From: Oscillospiraceae bacterium | GTDB taxonomy: Bacteria; Bacillota; Clostridia; Oscillospirales; Ruminococcaceae | NCBI GenBank assembly: GCA_902790675.1 | Contig: CADASU010000005.1 | Span: forward strand, 20,301 to 84,300 | Direction: 5' to 3' | Length of the DNA: 64,000 bases | Part shown: piece by piece, positions 48,974-63,018 of the stretch | Layout of the letters: each line of letters opens with the position of its first letter | How positions within the stretch are numbered: the first letter of the stretch is position 1 | Position numbers and translations under genes: made by a program | Notes under the pieces: generated by a model | Database searches by the model: none | The model's input: the letters and a program-made list of their open reading frames with translations, nothing else | What the model was told of the DNA's origin: nothing

Positions 48974-49000
48974 TTACAGAAAGAGCTAAAGGCTGTTATT

Positions 49001-49471
49001 ATGCAAAACAAATCAAGAAAAATAATTTCTTTAAATAGAAAAGCCAAACATGACTATATAATTGAAAAATCTTATGAAGCTGGTATTGAACTTTTTGGTA
49101 CTGAAGTTAAGTCTATAAGACAAGGAAATATCACGTTAAAAGATGCATATTGTATGATAGATAATGGCCAAATTTATTTGTTTAATATGCATATCAAGCC
49201 TTATGAACATGGCAATATATTTAACAGAGATCCTGTTCGTAAAAGAAAATTATTGTTGCACAAAAAAGAAATTTTAAATTTACACAATGTTGTTAAACGT
49301 CAAGGATATTCTATAATTCCTTTATCTGCTTATTTTGCCAAATCTAAAGTTAAAATTGAAATAGGCCTTTGTAGAGGTAAAAAACTGTATGATAAAAGAG
49401 CTTCAATTGCCGCCAGAGATGCTAATAGGCAAATTGAACGAGAATTAAAGCAAAAATCAAATTATTATTAA
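49001..49471 (+). CDS. smpB: SsrA-binding protein
   Basis: NRKAKHDY, GTEVKS and KRKLLLHKKE motifs. The tmRNA starts 2 nt downstream. Confidence 0.95.
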   Translation: MQNKSRKIISLNRKAKHDYIIEKSYEAGIELFGTEVKSIRQGNITLKDAYCMIDNGQIYLFNMHIKPYEHGNIFNRDPVRKRKLLLHKKEILNLHNVVKRQGYSIIPLSAYFAKSKVKIEIGLCRGKKLYDKRASIAARDANRQIERELKQKSNYY

Positions 49472-49472
49472 A

Positions 49473-49862
49473 GGGGGCGTAAGGGATTCGACGGGAATGA
49501 AAGTGTATGATAAGCGAGTAGAGGAGATGCCACCTCTATAAAAGGCATATTTAAATTTTAAATGCAAAAAATAATGCAAGTATAGGCTTTGTTAACAGCA
49601 AAGCTCTTTTGGCAGCTTAATTAATTTTGCCAAGGTTGTATTCTAGTTTTGCTGCGAACTGAATTCAACTTCATTTGATTTTAGCAGTAAACAGTTCATG
49701 GAATATCTCAGTTCTTTGAACAGTGAATTAATGAGATACTCTATTTTATCGGTTTGCTTTTTGTCTATATAATATGAGGAATTTCTAACAATAAGCTACA
49801 CTCGTAGAAAGTTATACATACTCACTTTTCGGACAGGGGTTCAACTCCCCTCGCCTCCACCA
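49473..49862 (+). ncRNA. ssrA: tmRNA (SsrA)
   Basis: The 5' end GGGGGCGTAAGGGATTCGACGGG and the 3' end GGACAGGGGTTCAACTCCCCTCGCCTCCACCA form the tRNA-like domain. The internal reading frame GCA AAA AAT AAT GCA AGT ATA GGC TTT GTT AAC AGC AAA GCT CTT TTG GCA GCT TAA gives the tag AKNNASIGFVNSKALLAA, but the resume codon is not certain. Confidence 0.92.
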
Positions 49863-49882
49863 CTAGAACATGTAAAAATTTT

Positions 49883-49921
49883 AAGGCTTCCTGAGTTCAT
49901 ATTTTTCAGGAAGCCTTTTTC
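49883..49921 (+). terminator. Rho-independent terminator of ssrA
   Basis: Perfect 12-bp stem AAGGCTTCCTGA (49883-49894) / TCAGGAAGCCTT (49906-49917) followed by TTT. Confidence 0.8.
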
Positions 49922-50024
49922 TGCTATTTATCCAAATTAAATAATTAAATTTATCAATTTTTATTACAATTCAGCTTATGATAATCATACAAAAACATAT
50001 AATTTTTATTTTAAATATGTTGTA

Positions 50025-51394
50025 TTAACTATTCATAAATTTTTTAATTTTATCTTCATATCCTCCTTTAAAAAATGCACATGTTGACTCATCTTTTCCG
50101 TAGAAATCTCCAGTACCCGCAAAAGCAATAACTCTACAATGTCCACCTCCACATTTTTCCCTATATTCGCAATTTCTACATTCTTTATTTCTGTCAAACA
50201 AATCTTGAACGGTTGTCAATACTGTGCTTAAATAATTAGATTTTGTCAATATATCTTTTAACTTCATATTTTTTAAATTTTCAAAATTCATGTTATATTT
50301 TTTTGCATATCCATTCCAACCGTTACATGGCAAAACTTGTCCATCAGGAGCAATGAAAATTTCATCTCTCGTGCGCCAGCAAGCTACCTGTTTAGAAAAA
50401 TCTGAAGTTTCATTACACTTTAGTGGAACAATGGACAAAATATTTGCTTGATTATCGGCAAAGCAAAAGTCTTTTAAATAAAATGCTACGTTCCAATTTT
50501 TTTCTTGTGTGCATAAAGTAAATCTATGTAAGCATCATAGCAATCTTCATATGATAAAGCTTTATTTTCCTCCGGAAGTAGACTCCATCGTAATGTCTCA
50601 GCAGTTCTATATACTTCAACTTGAGTAACGCCCATATTATTCATAAGTTCAACTGTGTCGTTAAGAACATGAATATTACCTTGGTGTATACAACATACAG
50701 CTATAACATAAAAATCATTTTCCACTAACATCTTTATTGCATTTAACGCATCTTTTTCTGCACCATCTACTCCTCTCATCCAATTATGATATCCTATGCC
50801 ATCAAAACTAACACTAAATGATGGCTTTATGTTTCTTTTTATTATTTCATCAATAAATTCTTTGGTTATAAGTGAACCATTTGTGTTTATGGAAGCAATT
50901 TTAACATTTCTTTTTAATAATTCATCCACAATGTCAAAAAAGTCATTTCTAAGAAGTGGCTCTCCACCTGTAAAAATAACTCTTTCTATTCCACAGTCTG
51001 CTATTTGATTAGCTATATCCAAACAGTCTTCAAGTGGTAGTTCATCGTTCCTGTTTTCACCATCAGATGCCATAAAACAATGTCGACATTTGTAGTTACA
51101 TCTTTCTGTAAGTCCCCACCTAACTTGATGAAAATACCTATTATTAAAAAATTTATATTGTTGATTTGTTTCTAATTTCTTACCTTCTTCGTTCAAATGA
51201 ATAATATTTGCGTTTAATAATTGTTTAATAACATCATTATTTTCCAAATCATGGTTTCCATCACATTTCTTTAATATGTCAAACTCTTCTAAATCTAAAG
51301 TTCTTACTGATGCATTTTTGTTAATATTAAATAAAACTCTTGGAATTCTCAACCAGCCTCTAAGACCTAATTACCTATTTAATAATAATTTCAT
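50025..51394 (-). pseudogene. Radical SAM/SPASM peptide-maturase gene, interrupted (in-frame TAA at codon 8 and a frameshift at an A7 run); may be a pseudogene, a sequencing artefact or a recoded gene
   Basis: Track ORF 50486-51352 carries the radical SAM core CNYKCRHC (CxxxCxxC) and a GGEPLL-type segment. Track ORF 50025-50438 carries a Cys-rich SPASM-type tail (CRNCEYREKCGGGHC; 8 Cys in total). The two frames are joined by one extra A in the A7 run (plus-strand T7 at 50497-50503), giving ...LLYAHKKKNWNVAFYLKDFCFADNQANILSIVPLKCNE.... Upstream, a strong SD (GGAGGG, 5 nt) precedes ATG 51394, giving MKLLLNR-TAA(51371-51373)-LGLRGW-(TTG 51352)RIPRVLFNINKNASVRTLDLEEFDILKKCDG, all in one frame. 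Confidence 0.6.
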
Positions 51395-51471
51395 AACAGC
51401 CCTCCATTACTCAACATATTAAATTATATGTACTATAAATAATATATATCTTATGTCTATTTTTGCCAAAT

Positions 51472-51500
51472 AATATAAAGGTTTTATCTATTTTTGTCAA
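51472..51500 (-). promoter_or_regulatory. Sigma-A-type promoter for the radical SAM gene
   Basis: The minus strand reads TTGACA (plus 51495-51500), a 17-nt spacer, then TATATT (plus 51472-51477). Confidence 0.5.
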
Positions 51501-51648
51501 CATATTTACAATATTTCATATTAATTTATAAATATAACGATAAAATTAATTACTTTTAAAGTTATTTTGTTTGATGTAAAATTACTTCACATCTATAATC
51601 AAAAATTGGTCAAAAACGTGTACTTATATATTTCCTAATAAAGCACAT

Positions 51649-51692
51649 CAAAAAATTACCCTTCATCAACAATTGCTTTAATGAAGGGTAAT
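51649..51692 (-). terminator. Rho-independent terminator of the KS-KS'-DH-ACP operon
   Basis: Perfect 12-bp stem ATTACCCTTCAT (51655-51666) / ATGAAGGGTAAT (51681-51692). On the minus strand it is followed by TTTTT. Confidence 0.7.
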
Positions 51693-51764
51693 TTAAAACC
51701 ACATACATCTATTGTAAAAAAACACCCAAACTTATATTTGCTTAATATTATTTATTAAAGATTA

Positions 51765-52004
51765 TTATTTCTTGTTACTCTCAATTATATTAACTATGTC
51801 TTCAATTGTTCTAAGCTCAGAAATTTTTTCAGGCTCAACAACAACATTAAATTTTCCTTCAACCATTCCAAATACTTCAAGTATGTTTAAAGAATCCAAG
51901 CCTACTTCCTCCAGAAGATTTGCATCTCTTGGAATATCATCGGTATCCTTCCCAGTAATCTTGCTTAACTCTTCCCTAACCATTTTTTCAGTATCATTCA
52001 TCAC
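51765..52004 (-). CDS. Acyl carrier protein (cluster-dedicated)
   Basis: 79 aa and acidic, with a GLDSLNILE phosphopantetheine attachment motif (DSL). Confidence 0.82.
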   Translation of the reverse strand: MMNDTEKMVREELSKITGKDTDDIPRDANLLEEVGLDSLNILEVFGMVEGKFNVVVEPEKISELRTIEDIVNIIESNKK

Positions 52005-52036
52005 AAAAGCCTCCTTAATTTTAAAATAATTATTAT

Positions 52037-52450
52037 TTATTTTATTACTATAGTTAGCTCTGCTTCAGCTGCCATGACATTATCAACATACGTAGAACAA
52101 TCTGCTCTTAAAACTCTAAAAGAGTCCTTTATAACTTCCATTTTAACCGATATTAAATCACAAGGCAACACTAATTTTTTGAATTTTACGTTTTGCATTT
52201 CTGCAACAACAGGAATTCCGTCTATTTTTCTAGTATACCCAACAAAAGCTGCGGTAAGTTGAGCCATAATCTCACAGAGAATAGATCCTGGTACAATTTT
52301 TTTATAAGGATAATGCCCATCCAAAAAAAACTCATTTCCTTTAACTTTATATATACCCTCAGCACAAGTTCCATCTATACTAACAATTTCATCCAACAAT
52401 AACATACTATTTCTATGAGGAATTAATTTTTTTAAATCAAACTCCTTCAT
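52037..52450 (-). CDS. FabZ-like 3-hydroxyacyl-ACP dehydratase (hot-dog fold)
   Basis: LIPHRNSMLLLDEIV and GHYPYKKIVPGSILCEIMAQ match the FabZ patterns LPHR.P.LLVD and GHFP..P.mPGVL..EA.AQ. Confidence 0.82.
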   Translation of the reverse strand: MKEFDLKKLIPHRNSMLLLDEIVSIDGTCAEGIYKVKGNEFFLDGHYPYKKIVPGSILCEIMAQLTAAFVGYTRKIDGIPVVAEMQNVKFKKLVLPCDLISVKMEVIKDSFRVLRADCSTYVDNVMAAEAELTIVIK

Positions 52451-52452
52451 AA

Positions 52453-53385
52453 TTAATTAGCGCCTCCTGTCAATTGTATCGCAGAAACAAAACCTCCAGC
52501 ATCCCCACAAATGATTAAACTATCTTTAGTCAACTTATTTTTATAATTTGACAAGCATCTTCCAAGATCAATAATAGGAGTTATTGAAAACATATTTTTG
52601 TTAATTAATGGCTGAACTTCTATATCGTCCTTTTCCAGCTGATTTAATATATCGTTTGCTATGTCAAAATCTCCAGACAAATAAATATCAACTGCTTTCA
52701 AGTCAGCGTCAAAAGCTTTCTCCAATGAACAAATACACTCTTTTGCACTAACATGACCTAAATATCTTGAATAACAATTTTTAATATAACAAATAGGCTG
52801 CTGCTCTGATTTTTCTTTTTCATAACTATTTATAAAAACAATAGAAGAACCTATTTCTTCTGTAGCACAAGCCAATATCTGAGTTGAATTTTTATATTTT
52901 ATATTATAGTAAGCATCTATAATCGCATTCAAGCCAGAATGAACCCCTTCAGATAGCGCATAAACTTTACCTCTAAATTGATTCCAAATGCACAATCTAC
53001 TTACAACAGCATTTCCAACAGTATTTGTAAAAGACGTAGGATTTACAAAATTAGCACCCTTTTCTTCAATTGACAAATTAAATTCAGCAGAAGGATAAAT
53101 AGCAGAAGAATAGCTTCCTGCTATTACTGACAAATTATGTCGATCTATGTCATCAAACATTCCCTTATCCTCAGCCAATTTCGCTGCTGCTTCTAAGGTT
53201 AGCGATTGCCTGTCCACAAGTCGCGTGTTTAAATTTCCCAATGACTGCGTCAATTTCTCTATTGAGCAAAAGTTTATATTTCCAGATTTTTCATTTACTT
53301 TTCTTACAAAATCATGTGTCTGCATGTAATTAAATCCAAAGTCTTCGATATAATAAAAAGCTGAATAAATTGCAATTTTCTCCAT
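52453..53385 (-). CDS. Ketosynthase-like protein lacking the catalytic Cys/His/His (chain-length-factor-like partner)
   Basis: 310 aa. The region DRHNLSVIAGSYSS...FVNPTSFTNTVGNAVVSRLCIWNQFRGKVYALSEGVHSGLNAIIDAY aligns by eye to the KS N-terminal domain, but the active-site Cys position is SEG and no HGTGT or GH.LG motifs are present. It is translationally coupled on both sides (gaps of 4 and 2 nt). Confidence 0.55.
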   Translation of the reverse strand: MEKIAIYSAFYYIEDFGFNYMQTHDFVRKVNEKSGNINFCSIEKLTQSLGNLNTRLVDRQSLTLEAAAKLAEDKGMFDDIDRHNLSVIAGSYSSAIYPSAEFNLSIEEKGANFVNPTSFTNTVGNAVVSRLCIWNQFRGKVYALSEGVHSGLNAIIDAYYNIKYKNSTQILACATEEIGSSIVFINSYEKEKSEQQPICYIKNCYSRYLGHVSAKECICSLEKAFDADLKAVDIYLSGDFDIANDILNQLEKDDIEVQPLINKNMFSITPIIDLGRCLSNYKNKLTKDSLIICGDAGGFVSAIQLTGGAN

Positions 53386-53389
53386 TTTA

Positions 53390-54640
53390 TCATACCTCCT
53401 TGTATCTAGAAATAACTAAGCTTGAATTATTTCCACCAAACGCAAAAGAGTTTGAAAGTATATTATCTATTTTCATTTCTCGGCTAACATTAGGAACACA
53501 ATCTACTGGACAATCTTCATCTGGTTCTTCGAAGTTAGCTGTTGGAGTAATCATATTATTTTGAATCATTAAAACACAAGCAACTGCCTCAATAGCTGCT
53601 GACGCTCCTAATGAATGCCCTATCATAGACTTTATAGAACTAACCGGAGGAATCTTATCTCCAAATACAGAGCATATTGCTTTGGACTCTATTTTGTCAT
53701 TCAATTTTGTACCCGTGCCGTGCGCAGAAATATAATCTATATCTTCAGGAGAAATTTGTGATTTTTGTAAAGCTTCTTTCATTGAAGAAATTGGTCCTGA
53801 TGAGTCTGGTCTTGGTGCTGTAATGTGGTAGGCATCTATGCTTAAACCATATCCTTTAATTTCTCCATATATATGTGCTTTTCTCCTTAAGGCTGATTCC
53901 AAATCTTCCAAGATTAAAATTCCACAGCCTTCACTTACAACCAAACCTTTTCGATTTTTATCAAAAGGTCTACACACGTCACTAGTAAGAGAAAGTAATC
54001 TATTAAACCCAATTAAAGCAGTTAGTGAAAAAGAATCCACTCCACCCACTATGGCTACTTGGGCATCACCATGTTTTATCCTATCATATCCCCAGCCTAT
54101 CGAATAGTTTCCTGCTGCACAAGCATTCAAAAAAAGACGTGATTCCATATTTTTAAAATTAAAATATTTACAAACTGTAGATAGAATATCTCCAGGATAT
54201 AAATTTTTAATAGCATTATTACATAAATTCTGATCTTTACTTTGCAATAAATTTTGAAACAAATTATAATTTATTTGATAATCTGCTTTTTGTGAGCTCT
54301 TACCCATGGTACTTCCTAAAGAAATTACCATTTTATTGCTTATATCATCTAGGTTTAGTTTACTATCTTCTAACGCCATATTAATCGACTTTATTGTCAT
54401 CTTTTCCGATCTATCTATTTCCGCAAATTTTATGCCATTTCGATCTGCTAAATAATGCGATTTGTTAAAGTCTTTGATTTCTCCAGATATTTTAACCCTT
54501 AAGTCATTAAAAGAATCGAAAGAAGTTGGCCCAGTAAAAACTTTACCATTTGATATATTTTCCCAAAAGGCATCCTTTCCAATGCTTCCCGGCGCCATGA
54601 CTTCAATACCAGTTACTACAACTCGATTCAAACTATTCAC
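53390..54640 (-). CDS. Beta-ketoacyl-ACP synthase (FabF/KAS II-like)
   Basis: RVVVTGIEVMAPG N-terminus, NACAAG active-site Cys, AHGTGT and GHSLGASA His motifs, NSFAFGGNNSSL C-terminus. The start is ambiguous (GTG 54640 or TTG 54631). A 6-codon mini-ORF (ATG AAA AAA GAG GGT GAA TAG) with its own GGAGGA overlaps the start. Confidence 0.85.
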   Translation of the reverse strand: MNSLNRVVVTGIEVMAPGSIGKDAFWENISNGKVFTGPTSFDSFNDLRVKISGEIKDFNKSHYLADRNGIKFAEIDRSEKMTIKSINMALEDSKLNLDDISNKMVISLGSTMGKSSQKADYQINYNLFQNLLQSKDQNLCNNAIKNLYPGDILSTVCKYFNFKNMESRLFLNACAAGNYSIGWGYDRIKHGDAQVAIVGGVDSFSLTALIGFNRLLSLTSDVCRPFDKNRKGLVVSEGCGILILEDLESALRRKAHIYGEIKGYGLSIDAYHITAPRPDSSGPISSMKEALQKSQISPEDIDYISAHGTGTKLNDKIESKAICSVFGDKIPPVSSIKSMIGHSLGASAAIEAVACVLMIQNNMITPTANFEEPDEDCPVDCVPNVSREMKIDNILSNSFAFGGNNSSLVISRYKEV

Positions 54641-54692
54641 CCTCTTTTTTCATAATTTATGTAAATCCTCCATTTTTAAAGCTACTGTAAAC

Positions 54693-54721
54693 ATTTTAAG
54701 CATTATTTTTATATAAGTCAA
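54693..54721 (-). promoter_or_regulatory. Sigma-A-type promoter for the KS operon
   Basis: The minus strand reads TTGACT (plus 54716-54721), a 17-nt spacer, then TAAAAT (plus 54693-54698). Confidence 0.55.
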
Positions 54722-54755
54722 GTAAAAACAATATATTTCGATAATTATGTACTAA

Positions 54756-54784
54756 TTGAAAATAAATTATTATAGTGTTATAAT
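54756..54784 (+). promoter_or_regulatory. Sigma-A-type promoter for fabG-like/GNAT genes (divergent from the KS promoter)
   Basis: TTGAAA (54756-54761), a 17-nt spacer ending in TGT, then TATAAT (54779-54784). Confidence 0.55.
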
Positions 54785-54818
54785 TTACTAAAATATAAAT
54801 AGGAGGTTGTAGAAAAGT

Positions 54819-55559
54819 ATGTCAAGATTAGATGGTAAAATAGCTGTTGTTACTGGTGGATCTAGAGGTATTGGAAAAGCTATTTGCTTAAAATTAGCTG
54901 AACATGGAGCCAATGTTTCTTTTGTTTATGCCAACAATAAAGAAAAAGCTGATTCTACTATTAAAGAATTGTCTAATTTTAATAATGATGGTTCAGCTTA
55001 CAAATGCGATGTGGCTGACGATTTAGCAGTAAAAGACCTAGTAAACAAAATAATAGGCAAATACGGAAAAATAGATATACTAGTAAATAATGCGGGCATT
55101 ACAGATGATAAGTTAGCTTTCAATATGGACTATAATTGTTTTAACAAAGTTATTCAAACTAATTTATTAGGCACTTTTAATATGATACACCACTGCTATA
55201 TGAATTTTATAAAAAATAATGGCGGAAGAATAATAAATATATCATCCGTGGTTGGCCTAAATGGAAATATAGGACAATCTAACTATGCAGCCTCTAAAGC
55301 CGGAATAATTGGTTTAACTAAATCTATAGCAAAAGAACTTGGTCGCAAAAATGTAACATGTAATGTAGTAGCACCAGGTTTTATAGAAACCGAAATGACA
55401 AGTAGTTTAAAAAATCCAGACAATATTCTACGTAACATACCCTTAAATAGATTTGGATCAGCTGAAGATGTTGCTGATGCTGCTTTATTTCTTGCTTCAG
55501 ATGAAGCTAAATATATAACAGGTTCAATTATAAAAGTTGATGGTGGATTAATTTTATAA
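54819..55559 (+). CDS. 3-oxoacyl-ACP reductase (FabG-like SDR)
   Basis: VVTGGSRGIGKAI, NNAGIT and the YAASKAG (YxxxK) catalytic motif; 246 aa. Confidence 0.85.
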   Translation: MSRLDGKIAVVTGGSRGIGKAICLKLAEHGANVSFVYANNKEKADSTIKELSNFNNDGSAYKCDVADDLAVKDLVNKIIGKYGKIDILVNNAGITDDKLAFNMDYNCFNKVIQTNLLGTFNMIHHCYMNFIKNNGGRIINISSVVGLNGNIGQSNYAASKAGIIGLTKSIAKELGRKNVTCNVVAPGFIETEMTSSLKNPDNILRNIPLNRFGSAEDVADAALFLASDEAKYITGSIIKVDGGLIL

Positions 55560-55609
55560 AAATTCAACTCTTAATTTTTAATATTTATTAACTTAAAGGG
55601 GGAATATAC

Positions 55610-56494
55610 TTGATTAAAATATCTAAAATTTGCACAAAAGACGATATTGCTTTGTTTAAACGCTTTATAAATGAATATATACCTTTTTCTGATGACAGTT
55701 TATGGCTTGGCGCCACTATTAACGGAATTCCATGTGGAGTCTTATTTGCAGATATTATAAGTGAAGATTCTAAAATTGGGGATATACAATTTTTATTTGT
55801 ACATCCTATAACAAGACGTATGGGTGTAGCTACAAAACTTTTAAATACATTTATTGAAGAAGCAAAAAAATTAAAGTGTAAAAAAGTTATTATTAAATCT
55901 GTAAAAGATATGAAAACAATAAATGAAATAAGTCCTTTTTTTAAAAATTACGGATTTGATCCTGTAGAAATTGAAGCAAATATTTATACTATTACACCCC
56001 AATATTTTCATGAGAGTGGTAAAATTGAAGAATTTGCCAATAGAAAAATAATAATTCCCCCAAATATAAAGATATATCCATCAGATGAAATAGATAAAAG
56101 TTTACTTGATTCTTTAAAAGCAAAAAGCGATATAGATTATTTAAAAATATACGATCCTTTTCCAGAAAATGATAAATTTAAATTAAAGCACATTAATACG
56201 CTTTTTGCAGTTTACAATTCCAATGAAATAGTAGGCTGGATGGTGGGCTTAGACGCATTTGGAGAATCTATTTATTATAAAACGCTCTTTGTAAAAGAAA
56301 AATATAGACATTTATATTTAGGATTAATTTTGCAAAACATGTGCTTAAAGAATCATATGACAAAATATCTCGATAGGTCTGTACTTCTGGGTATATCTAT
56401 AAGGAATGATCGTGCTTTAAAATTCTTTTCAATATATTCTAAGGGAATAAATAAAGATATAAATTACGAATTTAATTTTACCAAAAATTTATAA
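55610..56494 (+). CDS. Two-domain GNAT-family acyltransferase (candidate peptide N-acyltransferase)
   Basis: The N-terminal domain has a classic GNAT motif A, IQFLFVHPITRRMGVATKLLNTFIEEAKKLKCKKVII...FFKNYGF. The C-terminal half repeats a GNAT-like pattern (VGWMVGLD...LFVKEKYRHLYLGLILQNMCL...ALKFFS). TTG start after AAGGGGGA. Confidence 0.65.
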   Translation: MIKISKICTKDDIALFKRFINEYIPFSDDSLWLGATINGIPCGVLFADIISEDSKIGDIQFLFVHPITRRMGVATKLLNTFIEEAKKLKCKKVIIKSVKDMKTINEISPFFKNYGFDPVEIEANIYTITPQYFHESGKIEEFANRKIIIPPNIKIYPSDEIDKSLLDSLKAKSDIDYLKIYDPFPENDKFKLKHINTLFAVYNSNEIVGWMVGLDAFGESIYYKTLFVKEKYRHLYLGLILQNMCLKNHMTKYLDRSVLLGISIRNDRALKFFSIYSKGINKDINYEFNFTKNL

Positions 56495-56735
56495 AATCAT
56501 TTCAACAAAAACTATCAACTCATATTGCTTTTTGTCCACAATATATTATATATATATATTAGTAAGTTATTTGTTCATGTTTTGTGCATATAATGTTTTT
56601 ATAAGTCATTAGTGAATACGGAATACTATCTATAACATAAAAAAGCAAAAACATGTAAAACTATAGATCAATTTAAAAAATCAATAATATTTGTTAATAT
56701 AATTTTAATAATTTTATGAAATTATTAAAATTATA

Positions 56736-56765
56736 TTGACTTATATTGTTTATTTAGTATATAAT
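56736..56765 (+). promoter_or_regulatory. Sigma-A-type promoter for precursor genes
   Basis: TTGACT (56736-56741), an 18-nt spacer, then TATAAT (56760-56765). It is followed by a short inverted repeat ATTGATGGG-TTTA-CTCATCAAT. Confidence 0.55.
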
Positions 56766-56850
56766 ATATATTGATGGGTTTACTCATCAATGTGTATGCA
56801 ACTAGTGTTTTTTATCAACAATTAATGAACGTGAAAAGGGGAGATTATCT

Positions 56851-57132
56851 ATGACATTTAAGGAATTTTTAGAAAAACGCCCAGAAGACGTTAAAAAAGC
56901 AAAAGCATGCAAAACTATAGAGGAATTTAAAAAAATGGTAGATGGCTTTGGAATTTCTTATAAAGGAGATGCCGAGCTGCACGAAGCATTTGATATTGTT
57001 AAAAACAAATTATCAAATGAAGATTTAGATAATGTTGCAGGTGGCGCTTCTTACAAGCATAGAGGAGATCATGTGTATTACAACAAATTCAACAGCGATG
57101 TAATCACTGAGGGTACAGGTAAAAAAATATAA
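56851..57132 (+). CDS. RiPP precursor peptide 1, Nif11-like leader with double-glycine site
   Basis: 93 aa. The 65-aa leader is MTFKEFLEKRPEDVKKAKACKTIEEFKKMVDGFGISYKGDAELHEAFDIVKNKLSNEDLDNVAGG. It parallels the Nif11-type leader layout (..L.AF..K...D..L...LKA......v.iAK.aGF.It..eL....LSDeELE.VAGG). The core is ASYKHRGDHVYYNKFNSDVITEGTGKKI. Good RBS (AAGGGGAG, 7 nt). Confidence 0.78.
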   Translation: MTFKEFLEKRPEDVKKAKACKTIEEFKKMVDGFGISYKGDAELHEAFDIVKNKLSNEDLDNVAGGASYKHRGDHVYYNKFNSDVITEGTGKKI

Positions 57133-57190
57133 TAAATTTAAAAATTGAAACTAATAAGAAACATTAGATTGCATTTGGTCTCACGGAAAA

Positions 57191-57232
57191 CATAAGCCAG
57201 CTGCTGACTGCGAAATCAACAGCTGGCTTATG
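57191..57232 (+). promoter_or_regulatory. GC-rich stem-loop between the two precursor genes
   Basis: Perfect 13-bp stem CATAAGCCAGCTG (57191-57203) / CAGCTGGCTTATG (57220-57232) with a 16-nt loop. No T-run follows on the plus strand. Confidence 0.5.
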
Positions 57233-57367
57233 TGCAAAAAAACAACCAGTATATTTTCAACCCAATTTTAAACACCTTTATCTTTTTACAAATCCAATAA
57301 ATGGAGTTATTCTTCATGCTGTTGCTGTATGAAAAATAAAAAACGTAAAGAAAAGGAGGAATTCTTT

Positions 57368-57655
57368 ATGACGTTTAAAGAGTTTTTAGAAAAACGCCCA
57401 GAGGACGTAAAAAAAGCAAAAGCATGCAAAAATCTAGATGAGTTCAAAAAAATGGTAGATGGCTTTGGAATTTCTTATAAAGGAGATTCTGAATTACAAC
57501 AAGCATATGATTTGATTAAAAATAGCCAAAACCAGTTGTCAGACGATGACTTAAATAATGTTGCAGGTGGCGCTAGACTTCATAGAAAAGGAAGCGCGTT
57601 TCACAATAAAGACACCGGCGAAACCATAACTTTAGATTCAGGTAAAAAAGTATAA
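57368..57655 (+). CDS. RiPP precursor peptide 2, Nif11-like leader with double-glycine site
   Basis: 95 aa from ATG 57368 (AAAGGAGGA, 7 nt). The track start at 57329 adds an unlikely MKNKKRKEKEEFF extension that covers the RBS. The leader is MTFKEFLEKRPEDVKKAKACKNLDEFKKMVDGFGISYKGDSELQQAYDLIKNSQNQLSDDDLNNVAGG. The core is ARLHRKGSAFHNKDTGETITLDSGKKV. Confidence 0.78.
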   Translation: MTFKEFLEKRPEDVKKAKACKNLDEFKKMVDGFGISYKGDSELQQAYDLIKNSQNQLSDDDLNNVAGGARLHRKGSAFHNKDTGETITLDSGKKV

Positions 57656-57710
57656 TAATTTTAAAAATAAAGACAAACAAAGAAACTCTACGTTGCATTT
57701 GTTTCTTTGA

Positions 57711-57753
57711 AAAAAATTAGTTGTTGACTATTTTGTCAACAACTAATTTTTTT
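57711..57753 (+). terminator. Rho-independent terminator after precursor 2
   Basis: AAAAAATTAGTTGTTGAC (57711-57728), loop TATTTT, GTCAACAACTAATTTTTT (57735-57752). The stem is perfect and runs into a T tract. Confidence 0.8.
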
Positions 57754-58072
57754 CATAAGTTGCCAACAAAACAAAGTTCTTAATGTTTTTTAGTCTGATA
57801 TAATAAGATCAGTTGTTATAACTGCACATAAAAAATTTTGAGAATGTATTTACAAACTGCAAAAACATGATTTATCTTTATGTATTGTTTTAAAATAAAT
57901 ATATATCAATTCATTATAATCTAAATTTTTTAATAAAATTATTATTTGACGAATTATCTGGCGTTTGTAAATATAAACATTATTAAACACAAAAAATATA
58001 TCTATATGTACAATAAAACTAAAAAATTAAACTTTTCTTGCATACATTACTTAAAAAGCCTATTATTAAATC

Positions 58073-58122
58073 ATTAGTTATTATTTCATATCCATGTTTA
58101 TTAGTATGAAATAATAACTAAT
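58073..58122. repeat. Perfect 18-bp inverted repeat just upstream of dtd
   Basis: ATTAGTTATTATTTCATA (58073-58090), a 14-nt spacer, then TATGAAATAATAACTAAT (58105-58122). Confidence 0.7.
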
Positions 58123-58148
58123 AGTTTAACAATTGAAGGAGTTTTAAT

Positions 58149-58586
58149 ATGAAATTAGTTATTCAGCGTGTAAGCAAAGCTAGTGTAAAAGTAAATGATA
58201 AAGAAATATCAAAAATAGGAAAAGGATATTTAGTGTTAATTGGAGTAAATAATACAGATACAAAGTCCAATGCTGACTATTTAATTAATAAACTCATAAA
58301 ATTAAGACTTTTTGAAGATGAGAATGAAAAACTAAATTTATCACTAAAAGATATAAATGGTGAATTACTTTTAGTTTCACAATTTACACTCTATGCTGAC
58401 TGCTCACATGGAAATAGACCATCTTTCAAAGAAGCTGCCAAAGCATCTTATGCAAAAGATATATATGACTATTTTGTAGAGCAGTGCAAAAATATACTTC
58501 CTGTTGTTAAAGAAGGAATTTTTGGCAGTAACATGGAAATAAATTTAGTAAACGATGGACCTGTTACAATAATTATAGAAAAATAA
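58149..58586 (+). CDS. dtd: D-aminoacyl-tRNA deacylase
   Basis: MKLVIQRV N-terminus, SQFTLYAD and NDGPVT motifs; 145 aa. Confidence 0.9.
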   Translation: MKLVIQRVSKASVKVNDKEISKIGKGYLVLIGVNNTDTKSNADYLINKLIKLRLFEDENEKLNLSLKDINGELLLVSQFTLYADCSHGNRPSFKEAAKASYAKDIYDYFVEQCKNILPVVKEGIFGSNMEINLVNDGPVTIIIEK

Positions 58587-58988
58587 AAAATTAGTAAATG
58601 CTAAAGCTTCCCTTTTTCCGCGATAATTTAAACAGAGCATCTTAATTTGGCAATGTGCTGCTGTGCCGAATTTAACATAACATGTTCATAATTAAGTAGC
58701 TCTTTAATCATTTAAAAATATCTCCCCCCTACTTTTTTGTAGATAAAATAATAACTTTATTAAAAAATATGTTAGTTGTTTTTACATAAAAATCAGTCTG
58801 TTCATAAGCATCTTCAATAGTAGCGTCTTAGAAATTAATTTTTTGCAATTAAATGTTAACATAATTTTTTCAAAAAATTCATAATTTGTTTACAATTGCA
58901 TGATAATATACCTATGTTTATTATATAAATTGTTTTATGCTATTATACTGGTATTATTTTAAAATTGTTCAGCTTACGCAAGTTTTTA

Positions 58989-59010
58989 TTTCTTACAAAA
59001 TTGTAAGAAA
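58989..59010. promoter_or_regulatory. 22-bp palindrome (candidate operator) upstream of the toxin-like gene
   Basis: TTTCTTACAA-AA-TTGTAAGAAA, two perfect 10-bp arms. A third related half-site ATGTAAGATA lies about 20 nt downstream. Confidence 0.4.
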
Positions 59011-59102
59011 ACACAAAATAATGTAAGATAATAACATAGCATTTGTGATAACATTTTAATATAATAAATGTAATTTTATATATTTAAAGGAGAAAATTTA
59101 AA

Positions 59103-60875
59103 ATGAAAAGAAAAATAATAACAAAATTTTTATCAACCACACTAGTAGCAACATCTATTTTTTCTACTAGCTTAACTTTACCAGCTAGCGCAAACGATGC
59201 AACGTTTAGACTGATTTTTTCTAGCTACATGGATGATATTAATAATAGTTTTTCGGAGAAGAATCCAAAAAGCGGTCTCACCACAAACCGGATTGATGAT
59301 TCATTAATAAAAGAATTTAAAGATGTGATGGATAACATGGTTAAAAATTACAATGATGCAAGTGATTATTGTACAGACGATATAGATGCTAAGAAAAAAT
59401 TTAACGACATTAAAAAAGAATGTTCGAAGAATGAATTAATCCAACTTCTACAACAAAAGATTACTGACGATACAAATATTATATCCGATAATTTTAAAAA
59501 CACTTTCAAACAATTTATTAAACAAATATTTGATGCTGCATCATGTTTTATTAATAAAAGCCAATATAGAAAAGAAATTACAATAAAACGCCAAGTTCGC
59601 AAAGACGAGATATCTTTTGATGAAAAAAAATTAAAAAAAATATTTAATAAAGAAAAACTTAAAAACAAGTTAGATGAAAATGTCATTGCATACATGAAAA
59701 ACTTTGTAGCCCAGTCAAAGAAATCCATCCCATTAAATGAAGATGACACTGAAGAAATAAAAAAAGTTGTAGCCCCGGTAAAGAATTTAACAAATTCCAC
59801 CCAATCAAATAAAGATGATACTGCAGAAACAATAATTTATTACTTTAAAGAAAGGGGCAATTTACCTGAGCAGATTAAAAATGCAATAAATGATGAAACC
59901 GATAAAAAAACGATTAATAAAACAATTAAAAGACTAAAAACCAAAAAAATGGTCAAAGACGGTTATATAGATGAAAAAGAATATATTGTTAATTATTCCG
60001 TAGCAATACAATTTTTAACCGATTGTCTTAATATATTAAAGTCAAATGGTAGAATCGATTTGTATGACTACACTATTTCAAATAAAGAATATAATGATAT
60101 ATTAAATAAACACTTTAGAGATGCTTGCGTTGACTCCGAACTAATAAAAAATCATGATGATAACATAGATGGTTTAAACGCCGACATCAAAATAAAATCT
60201 AAAGTAGATAGCACATCTATCGACGATAGTGACGATAGTAAAGAACATATCGAGTTAGATGATAAAATTACTGCTTCAAAAGATGTCTTACAACACATTT
60301 TTGTTGGAGATGACATTTTGGAACAATCCACCGCCACCCTATCAACCGGCCATACTAACTATTCTATACCTGCTTTAAATGATATTGCAAATAAAAATTA
60401 TGAAAAAATGCAAAAATTTTCTAATAATAACTCCTTATCTAAGATTTTTATGTTATCTACAGGACTTGATGCTAGTAAATTGAACACTGAAAAAGTAGAA
60501 GGCATTAACACTCCCTTAAATAAAGATAATTTAAGTAAAAAATACTCATATGCCTGTTTGGGCAGGTTTTGGGGAACAAATAAAGGAATATTTCCCGAGA
60601 AGTGGACATGGACAAAAATTAGTGACGCCATTAGTAATATTCTAACATCAAATAATCTTGAATACACCAAAGAAAAGATAGATGAAAAAAATAACGTATA
60701 TAGATATGCATGCTTTTATGGAACATATGAAGAAGTTCCCATCGTAGTTTTTGTTAATTTAACTGATAAATCACTTGTTACAGCTTATCCATTATCTAAA
60801 GATGGCTTTGACAATAATAAAAAAGCAGCTTTAGGTAACAAAAATATTAAGCCTAAAAATCACAAAAAATCTTAA
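59103..60875 (+). CDS. Secreted protein with C-terminal bacterial-EndoU-like RNase toxin domain (putative)
   Basis: Sec signal peptide ending ASA-ND. The C-terminal region has LQHIFVGDD....STGH ... NKGIFPEKWTWTKISDAISNILTS ... EEVPIVVFVNLTDKSLVTAYPLS. This resembles the EndoU_bacteria pattern HIL.GD..GGGH...GK..FP..WS..KI...I......G..I.VV.....I.TAYP, but with about 90 extra residues between the GH and FP..W blocks. Confidence 0.5.
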   Translation: MKRKIITKFLSTTLVATSIFSTSLTLPASANDATFRLIFSSYMDDINNSFSEKNPKSGLTTNRIDDSLIKEFKDVMDNMVKNYNDASDYCTDDIDAKKKFNDIKKECSKNELIQLLQQKITDDTNIISDNFKNTFKQFIKQIFDAASCFINKSQYRKEITIKRQVRKDEISFDEKKLKKIFNKEKLKNKLDENVIAYMKNFVAQSKKSIPLNEDDTEEIKKVVAPVKNLTNSTQSNKDDTAETIIYYFKERGNLPEQIKNAINDETDKKTINKTIKRLKTKKMVKDGYIDEKEYIVNYSVAIQFLTDCLNILKSNGRIDLYDYTISNKEYNDILNKHFRDACVDSELIKNHDDNIDGLNADIKIKSKVDSTSIDDSDDSKEHIELDDKITASKDVLQHIFVGDDILEQSTATLSTGHTNYSIPALNDIANKNYEKMQKFSNNNSLSKIFMLSTGLDASKLNTEKVEGINTPLNKDNLSKKYSYACLGRFWGTNKGIFPEKWTWTKISDAISNILTSNNLEYTKEKIDEKNNVYRYACFYGTYEEVPIVVFVNLTDKSLVTAYPLSKDGFDNNKKAALGNKNIKPKNHKKS

Positions 60876-60939
60876 ATTAACAATATTGACATATTAAACT
60901 AACTATGGTACAATATGCGATAGCGTGGAGGTTTGGTTA

Positions 60940-61347
60940 ATGTATTCAAATGTGTCTTATTGTAGTTGCAATGATCAACTAAAAGGAAATTTGTACCAGT
61001 TATGGAGTTTTCAAAATGAAGGAATTACTCCAAGATGGCAGGCTGCATATAGTAATATGCATGATGAGTTTATTAAAGCTTTGTCTTCTGATGTAGATGC
61101 CGCTATTTCATTTTTTGGCGTTTTGAATCTTGATAGTGAAGTAGACGCTTTTGCTATCCACTTTGTAGATGAAATTATTAGCAATTTTAAAACAAAAGAA
61201 GAAAAGGAAAAATTTACAAAATGTATTAATGAACTGAGTAAGAAATATTCCGATAGTCCATATGTTAACTGGAATGTTTTTCGCTTCTATAGTGCTATGC
61301 ACGCCATAGAAGAGTTAAACACAGATGGTGAAGATAATTATGATTGA
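60940..61347 (+). CDS. Small acidic cytoplasmic protein, putative cognate immunity protein
   Basis: 135 aa from ATG 60940 (GGAGG, 8 nt), 64 nt after the toxin-like gene and on the same strand. No signal peptide and no family recognised. Confidence 0.35.
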   Translation: MYSNVSYCSCNDQLKGNLYQLWSFQNEGITPRWQAAYSNMHDEFIKALSSDVDAAISFFGVLNLDSEVDAFAIHFVDEIISNFKTKEEKEKFTKCINELSKKYSDSPYVNWNVFRFYSAMHAIEELNTDGEDNYD

Positions 61348-61371: not shown

Positions 61372-61399
61372 AAAAGCAGCCTTTTAATGGCTGCTTTTT
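61372..61399. terminator. Bidirectional terminator (immunity-like gene / spoIIIAH)
   Basis: AAAAGCAGCC, loop TTTTAAT, GGCTGCTTTTT. It overlaps the spoIIIAH stop codon. Confidence 0.65.
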
Positions 61400-61955
61400 A
61401 CTGTATGGGTGTTATTACTATATTTGACGCGCTTACTCCGGTAGTGCTTACTATGATATCCTTTATCTGAGAAGCTTGCTGTGCATTCATATCTTTAACC
61501 TTAACCGTAACATTAACTCTATCAGCTTCAACATATGCAACACAGTCTTCAAATCCTTTGGCCTTGACTTGATTTTCAATTGAAGTTTCTTGCTCGTTCA
61601 TTTCTGTAATTTTTAATACTTGTGCTGTAGCATTCGCTCTTTGATCACTAGATATTTCAGAAGATGATAATAATTTATTAATGTCTTCTGCTGCTTCGTC
61701 ATGAGAATTTTTCTTATCTAAACGAGCTTGGGTGAAATAATCATTAATTTTAGGGGTGGACACAAGTTCTGCTTCTCCATAATTTTGAGCGGAACTCGTC
61801 TGAGTTTTTCCAGTTCCCAAAACATCCATAACACTTATTGCCCCATCATCTCCAACTGAAAATTGCCAATTTAAATAAACTGCTATTCCCAAAATAAGAA
61901 CTAAAGATGATAATATAATTTGTCTTTTTCCGATTATTAAATTAATTTTTTTCAC
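61398..61955 (-). CDS. spoIIIAH: Stage III sporulation protein AH
   Basis: N-terminal TM segment, a Q/E-rich linker and a C-terminal YscJ/FliF-like domain. It is the last gene of the spoIIIA operon order AE-AF-AG-AH. Confidence 0.8.
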   Translation of the reverse strand: MKKINLIIGKRQIILSSLVLILGIAVYLNWQFSVGDDGAISVMDVLGTGKTQTSSAQNYGEAELVSTPKINDYFTQARLDKKNSHDEAAEDINKLLSSSEISSDQRANATAQVLKITEMNEQETSIENQVKAKGFEDCVAYVEADRVNVTVKVKDMNAQQASQIKDIIVSTTGVSASNIVITPIQ

Positions 61956-61967
61956 AAAACTCTCCCC

Positions 61968-62537
61968 CTATTTATTTTTAGCTGTTTGTTTCTTTACCAC
62001 AGACACCCTGCTGGTTTTTATATTTAAAGACTTAGTAACTGCATCAGTGACTCTTTTTACTATAACACTATTATCCGCCCCCTCACAAACTACAACCACC
62101 CCCTTAACTGTTGGTTCTTTCTGCGTTACTATTAGCGCTTGCTTTCCACTTGACCCATCTATAATCACTACATCATGCTGAGTGTCATTCCTGTTTGTAG
62201 ATTTACCTGAAAGATTTTCATTGCTATCTGATGTCTTTCTTTCCGAATTAGCATACACATTTTCTATGCCATTCTCCAGAGTAATTACAACTTCCGAACT
62301 CCCCACCCCATCAATTTGAGATATCATAGAGTTTATCTTTTTTTCTAATTGTGATACATATGCTTCTGCTGTAACATTTATATTTTTTGAACTACCGTTT
62401 TCATTTTTTCCATCTGAATTTTTTGGAATTAATGTTGATGTGGCAATAAGCAATATTCCAACCATTCCTATAATAATTATATATTTTGTCTTATCCTTAG
62501 AAGCCATTAATTTATCTATATACTTTTTTAATTCCAT
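61968..62537 (-). CDS. spoIIIAG: Stage III sporulation protein AG
   Basis: N-terminal TM segment and a C-terminal VKGVVVVCEGADNSVIVKRVTDAVTKSLNI pattern typical of SpoIIIAG. Confidence 0.8.
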   Translation of the reverse strand: MELKKYIDKLMASKDKTKYIIIIGMVGILLIATSTLIPKNSDGKNENGSSKNINVTAEAYVSQLEKKINSMISQIDGVGSSEVVITLENGIENVYANSERKTSDSNENLSGKSTNRNDTQHDVVIIDGSSGKQALIVTQKEPTVKGVVVVCEGADNSVIVKRVTDAVTKSLNIKTSRVSVVKKQTAKNK

Positions 62538-62552
62538 GTATTATCACCTTTT

Positions 62553-63005
62553 TTACTGATAATAAAGTATTTTTGGGTTTAATCCCGTTTCTTTCTCAAC
62601 TAGTTGTTTTATATTATTAACATCATAATTTTTAGATTTAGGAATTTTTAAATATATGTCTGTATCCAACGAGTTATTTTTATTAATATCTATGCTTATG
62701 TCCACACAATTATAACCATTTTTCATTAAAACAATTTTTAAAGCGTTTTTTAATTTTTGCTCATCTATCTTATTAAAATTATCATTATAATATTCTGGTG
62801 ATTGAAGCTTTTTATTTATTTTATCAAAACAATTTACTGAATTTAAACAATTGAAATTTTTCATAAGCGGCATAGCTAAAGAGCTAACTAAAAATAAATT
62901 TAAAATTAGTTTCATAATTTTTTTCATGCTTCCACTAGGAATTAACATATAAAAAATCGTTCCACAAATCATGGACACGCATATACACAAAATCCATTCA
63001 TGCAA
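62553..63005 (-). CDS. spoIIIAF: Stage III sporulation protein AF
   Basis: Two N-terminal TM segments (..MLIPSGSMKKIMKLILNLFLV..), size and operon position. Confidence 0.72.
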   Translation of the reverse strand: MHEWILCICVSMICGTIFYMLIPSGSMKKIMKLILNLFLVSSLAMPLMKNFNCLNSVNCFDKINKKLQSPEYYNDNFNKIDEQKLKNALKIVLMKNGYNCVDISIDINKNNSLDTDIYLKIPKSKNYDVNNIKQLVEKETGLNPKILYYQ

Positions 63006-63018
63006 TGTTTTTCTCCCC

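Follow-up and report, generated by a model that had tools for sequence, protein, structure and literature searches.

The 64,000-nucleotide stretch of DNA analysed here (hereafter the window) comes from an Oscillospiraceae bacterium (contig CADASU010000005.1, positions 20,301 to 84,300) and carries a locus of about 7.7 kb that lies between the tmRNA gene, with smpB on the same side, and dtd. At this locus, two short precursor-like genes stand beside a gene for a tandem GNAT acyltransferase, a radical S-adenosylmethionine (SAM)/SPASM (rSAM/SPASM) gene, and a cassette encoding a ketosynthase (KS), a KS-like protein, a dehydratase (DH), an acyl carrier protein (ACP), and a 3-ketoacyl-ACP reductase (KR). 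A first-pass annotation of the sequence had proposed this gene set in this order, with gaps of 4, 2, and 32 nt between the minus-strand KS, KS-like, DH, and ACP genes, a terminator closing that operon, and a divergent KR gene followed by the GNAT gene. Our open reading frame (ORF) map, combined with Pfam and NCBIfam scans, recovered all of these genes and elements in their places, and the coordinates give the same gap lengths (Table 1). The combined evidence leads us to favour, with a probability of about 55%, the reading that the locus is a gene cluster for a selidamide-like ribosomal lipopeptide that is acylated on lysine and has a dedicated type II polyketide synthase (PKS)-like lipid supply.

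Table 1. Genes and regulatory elements of the locus and its borders, in window coordinates.
Feature	Position	Strand	Evidence and remarks
tmRNA	49473-49862		Flank, with smpB on the same side
rSAM/SPASM gene, two ORFs	50025-51352	−	rSAM core 50486-51352; SPASM 50025-50438
Intrinsic terminator, 17-bp hairpin + T-run	51653-51694	−	3′ of the ACP gene, closes the KS-to-ACP operon; −21.3 kcal/mol
ACP, 79 aa	51765-52004	−	PF00550 E = 2.6e-12; DSL serine
FabZ-like 3-hydroxyacyl-ACP dehydratase (DH), 137 aa	52037-52450	−	PF07977 E = 9.8e-19; GHYP...PG...E motif
KS-like, 310 aa, Cys-less, shortened	52453-53385	−	PF00109 E = 9.5e-7; FabF model E = 1.2e-8
KS, 413-416 aa	53390-54640	−	PF00109 + PF02801; start 54640 GTG or 54631 TTG
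Divergent promoter region	54693-54784		Separates the KS operon from the KR and GNAT genes
FabG-like 3-ketoacyl-ACP reductase (KR), 246 aa	54819-55559	+	TIGR01830 E = 8.9e-91; PF13561, PF00106; divergent from the KS operon
Tandem-GNAT acyltransferase, 294 aa	55610-56494	+	PF00583 E = 7.3e-14
Promoter-like site TTGACT-18-TATAAT	56736-56765	+	5′ of precursor 1; 11/12 consensus matches alone
Precursor 1, 93 aa	56851-57132	+	Leader end ...LSNEDLDNVAGG; core ASYKHRGDHVYYNKFNSDVITEGTGKKI; TIGR03798 E = 6.1e-4, 20.0 bits
Precursor 2, 95 aa	57368-57655	+	Leader end ...LSDDDLNNVAGG; core ARLHRKGSAFHNKDTGETITLDSGKKV; TIGR03798 E = 6.9e-5, 23.0 bits
Terminator, perfect 12-bp hairpin (57717-57728 / 57735-57746) + T7	57717-57753	+	After precursor 2; RNA fold −27.8 kcal/mol
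dtd	58149-58586		ORF, opposite flank; L011 ortholog = PF02580

The two precursors are paralogous and each gene is preceded by a strong ribosome-binding site. For precursor 2, a 108-aa reading from the ATG at 57329 was discarded, since both the homologs and the ribosome-binding site favour the start at 57368. Both peptides have a leader of ~65 aa with the signature LSxxDLxxVAGG and a Cys-free, Lys-rich core of 27-28 aa ending in GKK[IV]. They belong to a family of 64 clusters, almost all of ~95 aa, in which alignment revealed a variable core (14-30 aa) behind a leader that is the most conserved part of the protein (consensus MT[FL]KEFLEK.P....A..C...EFK....G......L..A...vK....LS.D.L..V[AS]GG, with a canonical double-glycine end). 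Long cores (n = 43; 26-30 aa), to which both window cores belong, are almost free of Cys, contain 16.6% Lys, and follow the pattern ...N...G....T...GKKx, with GKK plus 0-3 residues closing 33 of the 43. The ~27-aa Cys-free pattern ...N...G....T...GKK resembles, at the level of sequence, a beta-hairpin. Short cores (n = 9) all carry Lys at position 1 or 2, eight of them starting with K and one with SKK.

The first-pass annotation had assigned these leaders to the Nif11 type. The double-glycine leader, the variable core, and the occurrence of paralogs agree with that assignment; the scores fall short of it, as both window precursors (Table 1) stay below the TIGR03798 cut-off of 32.3 bits. Among the 55 family members scanned, 37 matched this model at E ≤ 0.01 (best E = 3.6e-5), and none reached the cut-off, the maximum being ~24 bits. 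The CTB bacteriocin model was matched by 35 of the 55, all under its cut-off, and the Nif11 family PF07862 by 1. The precursors are therefore best placed, judging from these profile matches, as a Nif11-like distant sister family rather than as scored Nif11 members. They share with the Nif11 precursors of the prochlorosin type a long (~65 aa) helical leader ending in GG, paralogs with divergent cores, and an exporter that is possibly encoded elsewhere, and differ from the Nif11 family in scoring under the model cut-off. In the related locus L002, a remnant of the first precursor (leader residues 3-52; 9601-9744) is found between the GNAT gene and the surviving precursor gene, and the survivor has a short Lys-first core (KNDSVTNNNYGKGSSSQTTT), not the long core with a GKK tail.

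The GNAT encoded ahead of the precursors carries a coenzyme A (CoA) P-loop, RRMGVA, confined to its N-terminal half. An AlphaFold2 model built from a 17-sequence alignment (pLDDT 88.4) displayed the tandem-GNAT fold, in agreement with the two-domain enzyme that had been predicted, and the best Foldseek matches in the PDB were the tandem GNATs VipF, a clavulanic-acid tandem GNAT, a Clostridium glucosamine N-acetyltransferase, and MshD. NpuN, a predicted tandem GNAT with a P-loop in the N-terminal domain only and a VipF-like fold (PMC13060382), has the same architecture, the two proteins being likened by architecture and not by sequence. The acceptor of the long acyl groups transferred by NpuN (WP_012412981.1) is Lys1 of a Nif11-type precursor (PMC13060382, PMC8784127, PMC13647313). 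The GNAT family of the window is very small: successive searches of 5.8 billion proteins gave 9 and then 18 clusters. When 1.84 billion representatives were searched exhaustively with HMMER, 18 GNATs were returned at E ≤ 1e-30 and 194 at 1e-10, and the halo beyond the family core consists of tandem GNATs of ~290-300 aa. Scanning the JGI metagenomes with the GNAT added one locus (L018), a scan of the GTDB species representatives with the GNAT alignment gave one irrelevant single-domain match at 30% identity (L005), and a plasmid collection gave no match. Public assemblies that contain the family include GCA_978016555.1, GCA_045543505.1, and GCA_944380725.1.

Several distant full-length relatives of the GNAT (P0113, P0114, P0121, P0132, and P0226) are fusion proteins, with partners that include DUF7005, a SAM methyltransferase, and DUF4915. 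One further partner combines AMP-binding (fatty-acyl-AMP-ligase-like), KS, and acyltransferase domains as in a type I PKS loading region, a domain content that suggests a further link of such GNATs to lipid or polyketide chemistry.

We compared the gene neighbourhoods of 13 GNAT lineages, whose identity to the window GNAT is 38-100% and, in one of them, 33% (handles such as L001 denote the related loci). One to three precursor genes are located directly 3′ of the GNAT gene in 12 of the 13 lineages; the exception is the most distant one, L010 (33%), which has no precursor on its 3.5-kb contig. The GNAT-precursor pair is present in the lineages of the window with L011 and L012, L001, L002, L003, L004, L006, L007 with L013, L009, L014 with L015, L016 with L017, and L018. 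The small ORFs are thus conserved together with the enzymes, and the GNAT, with 18 clusters in 5.8 billion proteins and this constant association, does not group with housekeeping acetyltransferases; both points are in line with the first-pass annotation. The KS/KS-like/DH/ACP/KR cassette adjoins the pair in seven lineages and in three gene orders, and on the short contig of L004 the end of the acetyl-CoA carboxylase (ACC) genes alone is visible next to the GNAT gene. Since the window gene set recurs in related contigs whose GNATs are 38-85% identical, the arrangement is not a product of chance.

Three types of locus were distinguished. In type C (window, L001, L003, L011, L012, and L002 with a decayed rSAM gene), an rSAM gene and the ACP-DH-KS-like-KS operon are divergent from KR-GNAT-precursors. 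Type A/A′ loci (L016, L017, L004, L006, and L018), which come in two gene orders, comprise (BioY), KR, KS, KS-like, DH, ACP, FabD, biotin ligase, biotin carboxyl carrier protein, an AccC-AccD fusion, AccA, GNAT, and precursors; in L016, the genes from KS through AccA and GNAT to the precursors are all on one strand with short gaps. Type B loci (L007, L008, L013, L014, L015, and probably L009), among them L013 from a Hadza gut metagenome, consist of the GNAT gene and two or three precursor genes alone. The type B loci suggest that the GNAT and a precursor form the minimal functional unit and that the cassette is a frequent, tightly linked addition. An IS110-family transposase gene lies directly 3′ of the precursor gene at the cluster edge of L006 (11548-12726).

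Within the cassette, the KS has a Cys-His-His triad and the motifs ACAAG (ACAAGNYSIG), SAHGTGT, and GHSLGA, and scores 356 bits against the FabF model TIGR03150, under the cut-off of 493.75. Its best PDB matches were 9s5h_B (E = 2.9e-101), 6kxd_A (1.1e-83), and then FabF (~1e-82), the margin of 6kxd_A over FabF being small (285 versus 279 bits). The motif ACAAGNYS[IV]G is common to the KS, 6kxd_A, which we take to be Iga11, the ketosynthase of the ishigamide polyene pathway, and 9s5h_B. Chains B and C of PDB 9S5H/9S5I, an unpublished structure, are the closest known homologs of the KS and of its Cys-less partner. The KS-like protein had been described as lacking the catalytic Cys, and it indeed has Val at the nucleophile position, as does 9s5h_C, which its family profile matches at E = 4.5e-15. 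Its gene adjoins that of the KS in seven aligned loci. A single-sequence AlphaFold2 model of the KS-like protein was too poor for use (pLDDT 34.7), and the assignment comes from hidden Markov model (HMM) matches alone; they make the 310-aa protein a candidate for a chain-length factor (CLF)-type partner of the KS.

The remaining proteins of the cassette were scored against equivalog models as well. The DH retains the catalytic His and Glu motif, reaches 93.9 bits with the FabZ model NF000582 (cut-off 113), and matches FabZ in the PDB, and its orthologs have precomputed ApeI/ApeP-like Pfam matches. The ACP obtains 44.5 bits with its best equivalog model (cut-off 66), and the KR alone passes an equivalog cut-off (TIGR01830, 303.8 versus 297.75 bits). 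Neither an enoyl reductase nor FabH was found in any version of the cluster, including those that themselves encode FabD, ACC, biotin ligase, and BioY, and the window locus lacks FabH, enoyl reductase, FabD, and ACC. The window cassette consequently needs FabD and ACC from a separate fatty acid synthase (FAS). No thioesterase or other off-loading enzyme was found in the cassette, which leaves the GNAT as the sole candidate for off-loading the chain. As no version encodes an enoyl reductase, the chain is probably not fully reduced and probably keeps an alpha,beta-unsaturation. By analogy with the Iga, APE (aryl polyene), and granadaene systems it would be a conjugated polyenoyl group, or failing that an enoyl or a 3-hydroxy acyl group.

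The nearest analogs of this cassette are the highly reducing (polyene) type II PKSs (Iga11/Iga12, ApeO/ApeC, and 9S5H/9S5I), which likewise pair a Cys-His-His KS with a Cys-less partner, use discrete KR, DH, and ACP proteins, and have no enoyl reductase. Their Cys-less partner measures ~400 aa, whereas that of the present locus has ~310 aa, and they off-load the chain to an amino acid, a lipid, or an aryl starter, whereas the acceptor here would be a ribosomal peptide. Among Firmicutes, the granadaene (cyl) pathway of group B Streptococcus employs FAS-like enzymes without an enoyl reductase and an N-acyltransferase that links the polyene to ornithine; it differs in having a free amino acid as acceptor, the acyltransferase CylE, and its own ABC transporter and glycosyltransferase.

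The rSAM/SPASM gene had been put forward as a part of the locus, and its domains are indeed present. The rSAM ORF matches PF04055 (E = 1.5e-22), contains the CxxxCxxC motif as CNYKCRHC, and carries ~75-85 additional residues N-terminal to the core, and the SPASM ORF matches PF13186 (E = 4.5e-10; 40.1 bits, cut-off 21.5) and TIGR04085 (40.3 bits, cut-off 27); no named NCBIfam equivalog model was reached. Comparison with orthologs identifies the two ORFs as fragments of a single gene disrupted by a −1 frameshift. At 50497-50503 (an A-run on the minus strand), the window has A7 where the intact ortholog of L001 has A8; the latter reads ...YAHKKKNWNVAF... at this site and the window reads ...YAHKKKIGT*. 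The intact orthologs of L001 (456 aa) and L003 (440 aa) both read ...YAHKKKNWNVAFYLKDF.... The identical frameshift is present in L011, an independent metagenome assembly, which makes a sequencing artefact unlikely. As a further possibility, the loss of one A from a homopolymer in this otherwise undamaged gene may represent phase variation. In L002 (3622-4642), the gene is heavily decayed, with three out-of-frame pieces and a deletion of ~110 aa, and the loci of more distant relatives contain no rSAM gene at all. Together, the frameshift, the decay in L002, and the absence from distant relatives mark rSAM/SPASM as a clade-specific accessory under relaxed selection, which, on this comparison, is repeatedly being lost in the clade of the window and stands outside the conserved core.

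Like the rSAM/SPASM maturases PqqE, SkfB, StsB, WgkB, and those of the XyeB type, the rSAM/SPASM protein has a CxxxCxxC motif and a full SPASM domain and is encoded beside precursor genes. Those maturases have a peptide-binding domain where the present protein has its N-terminal extension, and, unlike them, the gene is accessory in the family and a pseudogene in the window. Sacti- and ranthipeptide chemistry can be ruled out for the rSAM enzyme, as the cores contain no Cys. Weak matches to TIGR04495, the model for XyeA cyclophane triceptide precursors, were seen in 6 of the 55 precursors (best E = 2.7e-4), and the cores of the rSAM-bearing clade contain the aromatic-x-Lys triplets YNK, HNK, and YSK, which resemble three-residue cyclophane motifs. 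The triplets and these matches offer a speculative lead to the chemistry of the enzyme.

For the selidamide-like pathway that we favour, the gene content suggests the following course. Two precursors of ~95 aa would be translated. The KS and the KS-like protein, together with KR, DH, and ACP, would build a chain iteratively from malonyl units, drawing on host FabD and ACC in the case of the window and on cluster-encoded FabD, ACC, biotin ligase, and BioY in some relatives. The GNAT would then recognize the leader and move the acyl group from the ACP, or from a CoA thioester, to the epsilon-amine of a core Lys, in the manner of selidamide N-acyltransferases; this role is proposed for the GNAT because no other enzyme is found with the precursors in nearly all loci. 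Among possible acceptor sites, the C-terminal GKK motif is the strongest candidate, or Lys1 or Lys2 in the subtype with short cores. In the clade of the window, rSAM/SPASM may add a further modification, and owing to the frameshift the product of the window genome is expected to be made without it. Finally, a peptidase-containing (C39) ABC transporter encoded elsewhere would cut at the GG site and export the product.

This scheme draws on two known groups of ribosomal lipopeptides. Selidamides derive from a Nif11/NHLP-type precursor with a Gly-Gly site and an adjacent GNAT that attaches a fatty acyl group to the side chain of Lys or Orn, and their cores are enriched in Lys and Arg at the termini (PMC8784127). 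Members of this class (kamptornamide, phaeornamide, and the nostolysamides, with the enzymes KspN, PhaN, and NpuN) exhibit the same adjacency of GNAT and leader-GG precursor as the window. They take the acyl group from primary metabolism, are accompanied by a lanthionine synthetase, in some cases also an arginase, and usually by an ABC transporter, and occur in cyanobacteria and proteobacteria; in contrast, the window locus has a dedicated cassette, Cys-free cores, and no LanM, arginase, or transporter, and resides in an anaerobic spore-former. Goadvionins, lipolanthines, and lipoavitides join a precursor and a dedicated PKS or FAS through a GNAT, as proposed here, and the GNAT of goadvionin biosynthesis, GdvG, uses an ACP-bound acyl donor (10.1101/2023.10.25.564083). 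These actinobacterial hybrids contain avionin or AviMeCys peptides, which LanKC- or HopA1-type enzymes and a decarboxylase form out of Cys, Ser, and Thr; none of these enzymes is found at the present locus. Their lipid machinery is a type I PKS/FAS or FabH-based, whereas the window has a type II KS/CLF-like set, and they are acylated N-terminally after leader removal, whereas the Nif11-like leader here goes with probable acylation of Lys.

Several observations weigh against the favoured reading. In three or four lineages, no lipid genes lie near the GNAT and precursors, so that the GNAT is not strictly dependent on the cassette and could use acetyl- or acyl-CoA, and its P-loop is of the canonical CoA-binding type. 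No leader peptidase or ABC exporter was found in any locus or in the 64-kb window, in which all ORFs of at least 590 aa were scanned for a C39/ABC exporter, and every match to a Nif11 model is below threshold. The profile matches behind the CLF assignment of the 310-aa protein are weak (E from 1e-7 to 1e-15), and an hhalign comparison of the KS-like family with the KS family was not significant. Moreover, host FabI or FabK could reduce the enoyl intermediate, which would give a saturated chain. The inference made in the first-pass annotation, that the locus specifies an acylated ribosomal peptide, nevertheless gains support from the gene-family comparisons described above, so far as sequences can tell.

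The loci without lipid genes and the canonical P-loop would also fit two co-located but chemically independent pathways, in which the GNAT acetylates the peptides with acetyl-CoA and the cassette serves a separate product, a polyene or an unusual lipid (for instance a pigment or a membrane lipid). The best family matches of the GNAT are acetyltransferases, GNATs acetylate in several classes of RiPPs (peptides of ribosomal origin that are modified after translation), and GNAT-precursor loci without lipid genes exist (L007, L013, and L014). Cassettes of the KS/CLF/KR/DH/ACP type also yield free polyene lipids elsewhere, as in aryl polyenes and granadaene. We nonetheless consider such a separation unlikely, as the cassette adjoins the pair in seven lineages and three orders, on the same strand and with short gaps in L016, and includes neither a thioesterase or acyltransferase gene nor lipid-head-group genes by which the chain could be released or put to use. 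A similarly low probability attaches to a course modelled on goadvionins and lipoavitides, with the leader removed before the GNAT acylates the N-terminal alpha-amine of the core with an ACP-bound chain. The characterized RiPP/PKS-FAS hybrids are all acylated in this way after leader removal (PMC13647313), the donor of GdvG is ACP-bound (10.1101/2023.10.25.564083), and the core N-termini of the present family are small residues or Lys. However, the conserved leader and the near-universal GNAT argue for leader-dependent recognition before cleavage, the cluster encodes no protease, and the GKK tail, like Lys1/Lys2 in short cores, resembles the side-chain sites of selidamides (PMC8784127).

Since neither a protease nor an exporter is encoded in any locus, the ~95-aa products might also stay uncleaved in the cell or forespore as small lipid-modified proteins, perhaps linked to sporulation, given that sporulation genes (spoIIIA, spoIIID, spoIIR, spoIVA/sipL, and an M23 peptidase gene) adjoin the family loci in five contexts. 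We regard this as improbable: the leaders have a textbook double-glycine end and match bacteriocin and Nif11 models, secreted RiPPs typically come as several paralogs with divergent cores, and with ~20 genes per 20-kb view a sporulation neighbour at each locus is, by our estimate, not clearly above chance. Least credible of all, and rejected as a candidate, is an ordinary type II FAS lying beside unrelated bacteriocin genes. The KR passes the FabG equivalog cut-off and relatives carry FabD and ACC genes within their clusters, but enoyl reductase and FabH are missing from every version, the partner of the KS has no Cys, the window version is without FabD and ACC, and the KS, DH, and ACP remain under the FabF, FabZ, and ACP cut-offs quoted above. 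In addition, the gene set was found solely beside the rare GNAT-precursor pair. The KS/ACP set thus cannot be a complete housekeeping FAS, in line with the first-pass annotation, which had taken it for a private set.

If the lysine-acylated lipopeptide reading is correct, the locus combines, on sequence grounds, the leader, GNAT, and Lys-rich termini of selidamides with the cluster-encoded lipid supply of goadvionins and lipoavitides. It fails defining features of both groups and represents no categorically new biological principle. We found no description in the literature of a combination of Nif11, GNAT, and KS/CLF; a 2025 review of RiPP-derived lipopeptides lay outside the literature covered, and a prior description is possible. 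A more far-reaching proposal, which we hold only tentatively and as distinctly less probable than the general reading, is that the locus represents an undescribed class of lipopeptides from anaerobic spore-forming Firmicutes, some of them gut-associated, maybe timed to sporulation. In this class a KS/short-CLF type II PKS would make a polyene or other non-reduced chain on a private ACP, in some members from a malonyl-CoA supply of their own, and the leader-guided GNAT would attach it to a Lys side chain. Such a class would have no precedent as a RiPP-polyene hybrid, nor, outside Actinobacteria, as a RiPP/type II PKS hybrid.

Known ribosomal lipopeptides are few, comprising selidamides, lipolanthines, goadvionins, lipoavitides, and some more. 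They are in demand, as a gene-encoded peptide with a selective acyltransferase is easier to engineer than a non-ribosomal peptide synthetase. The present family would merge leader-guided acylation and its own lipid supply in one compact locus, with an unusual and possibly polyene chain predicted from the lack of an enoyl reductase. Its sources are anaerobic spore-formers, some of the loci coming from human-gut metagenomes. The tiny GNAT family and the ~95-aa precursors with a recognizable leader and GKK tail provide a handle for genome mining.

Turning to expression signals and surroundings, the divergent promoter region contains promoter-like sites on both strands (54721-54693, minus; 54756-54784, plus) with 10/12 and 11/12 matches, respectively, which are consensus matches alone. 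Between the precursor genes, a 14-bp hairpin (57195-57232; −26.7 kcal/mol) is followed by an A-run and not by a T-run, and it may be an mRNA-stabilizing or processing element that raises the transcript stoichiometry of precursor 1. An Rfam scan of 49000-59200 identified the tmRNA alone, with no riboswitch or leader RNA. The island has a G+C content of 29.5% compared with 30.6% for the window, and this similarity to the flanks gives no sign of recent horizontal transfer. The other genes of the window have housekeeping functions (UvrAB, MutS2, LigA, GatAB, Ffh, Der, Era, Tsf, TrxB, SpoIID, and the spoIIIA genes), and no fab genes were found in the rest of its 64 kb.

Sporulation genes lie no more than a few kb from loci of the family in five chromosomal contexts, namely spoIIIA in the window (61398-63954), SpoIIID in L007 and L013, SpoIIR in L016, an M23 peptidase in L014, and a polysaccharide deacetylase with SpoIVA and SipL in L018 (11645-15592). 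These neighbours might point to sporulation-linked expression or reflect chance in the genomes of spore-formers. On the far side of dtd, the window encodes a 590-aa protein with an N-terminal segment resembling a signal peptide (59103-60875), followed by a 140-aa ORF (60925-61347); neither has a Pfam match. The two genes are kept 3′ of dtd in L001, L002, and L011 and are possibly a pair of the secreted toxin and immunity type.

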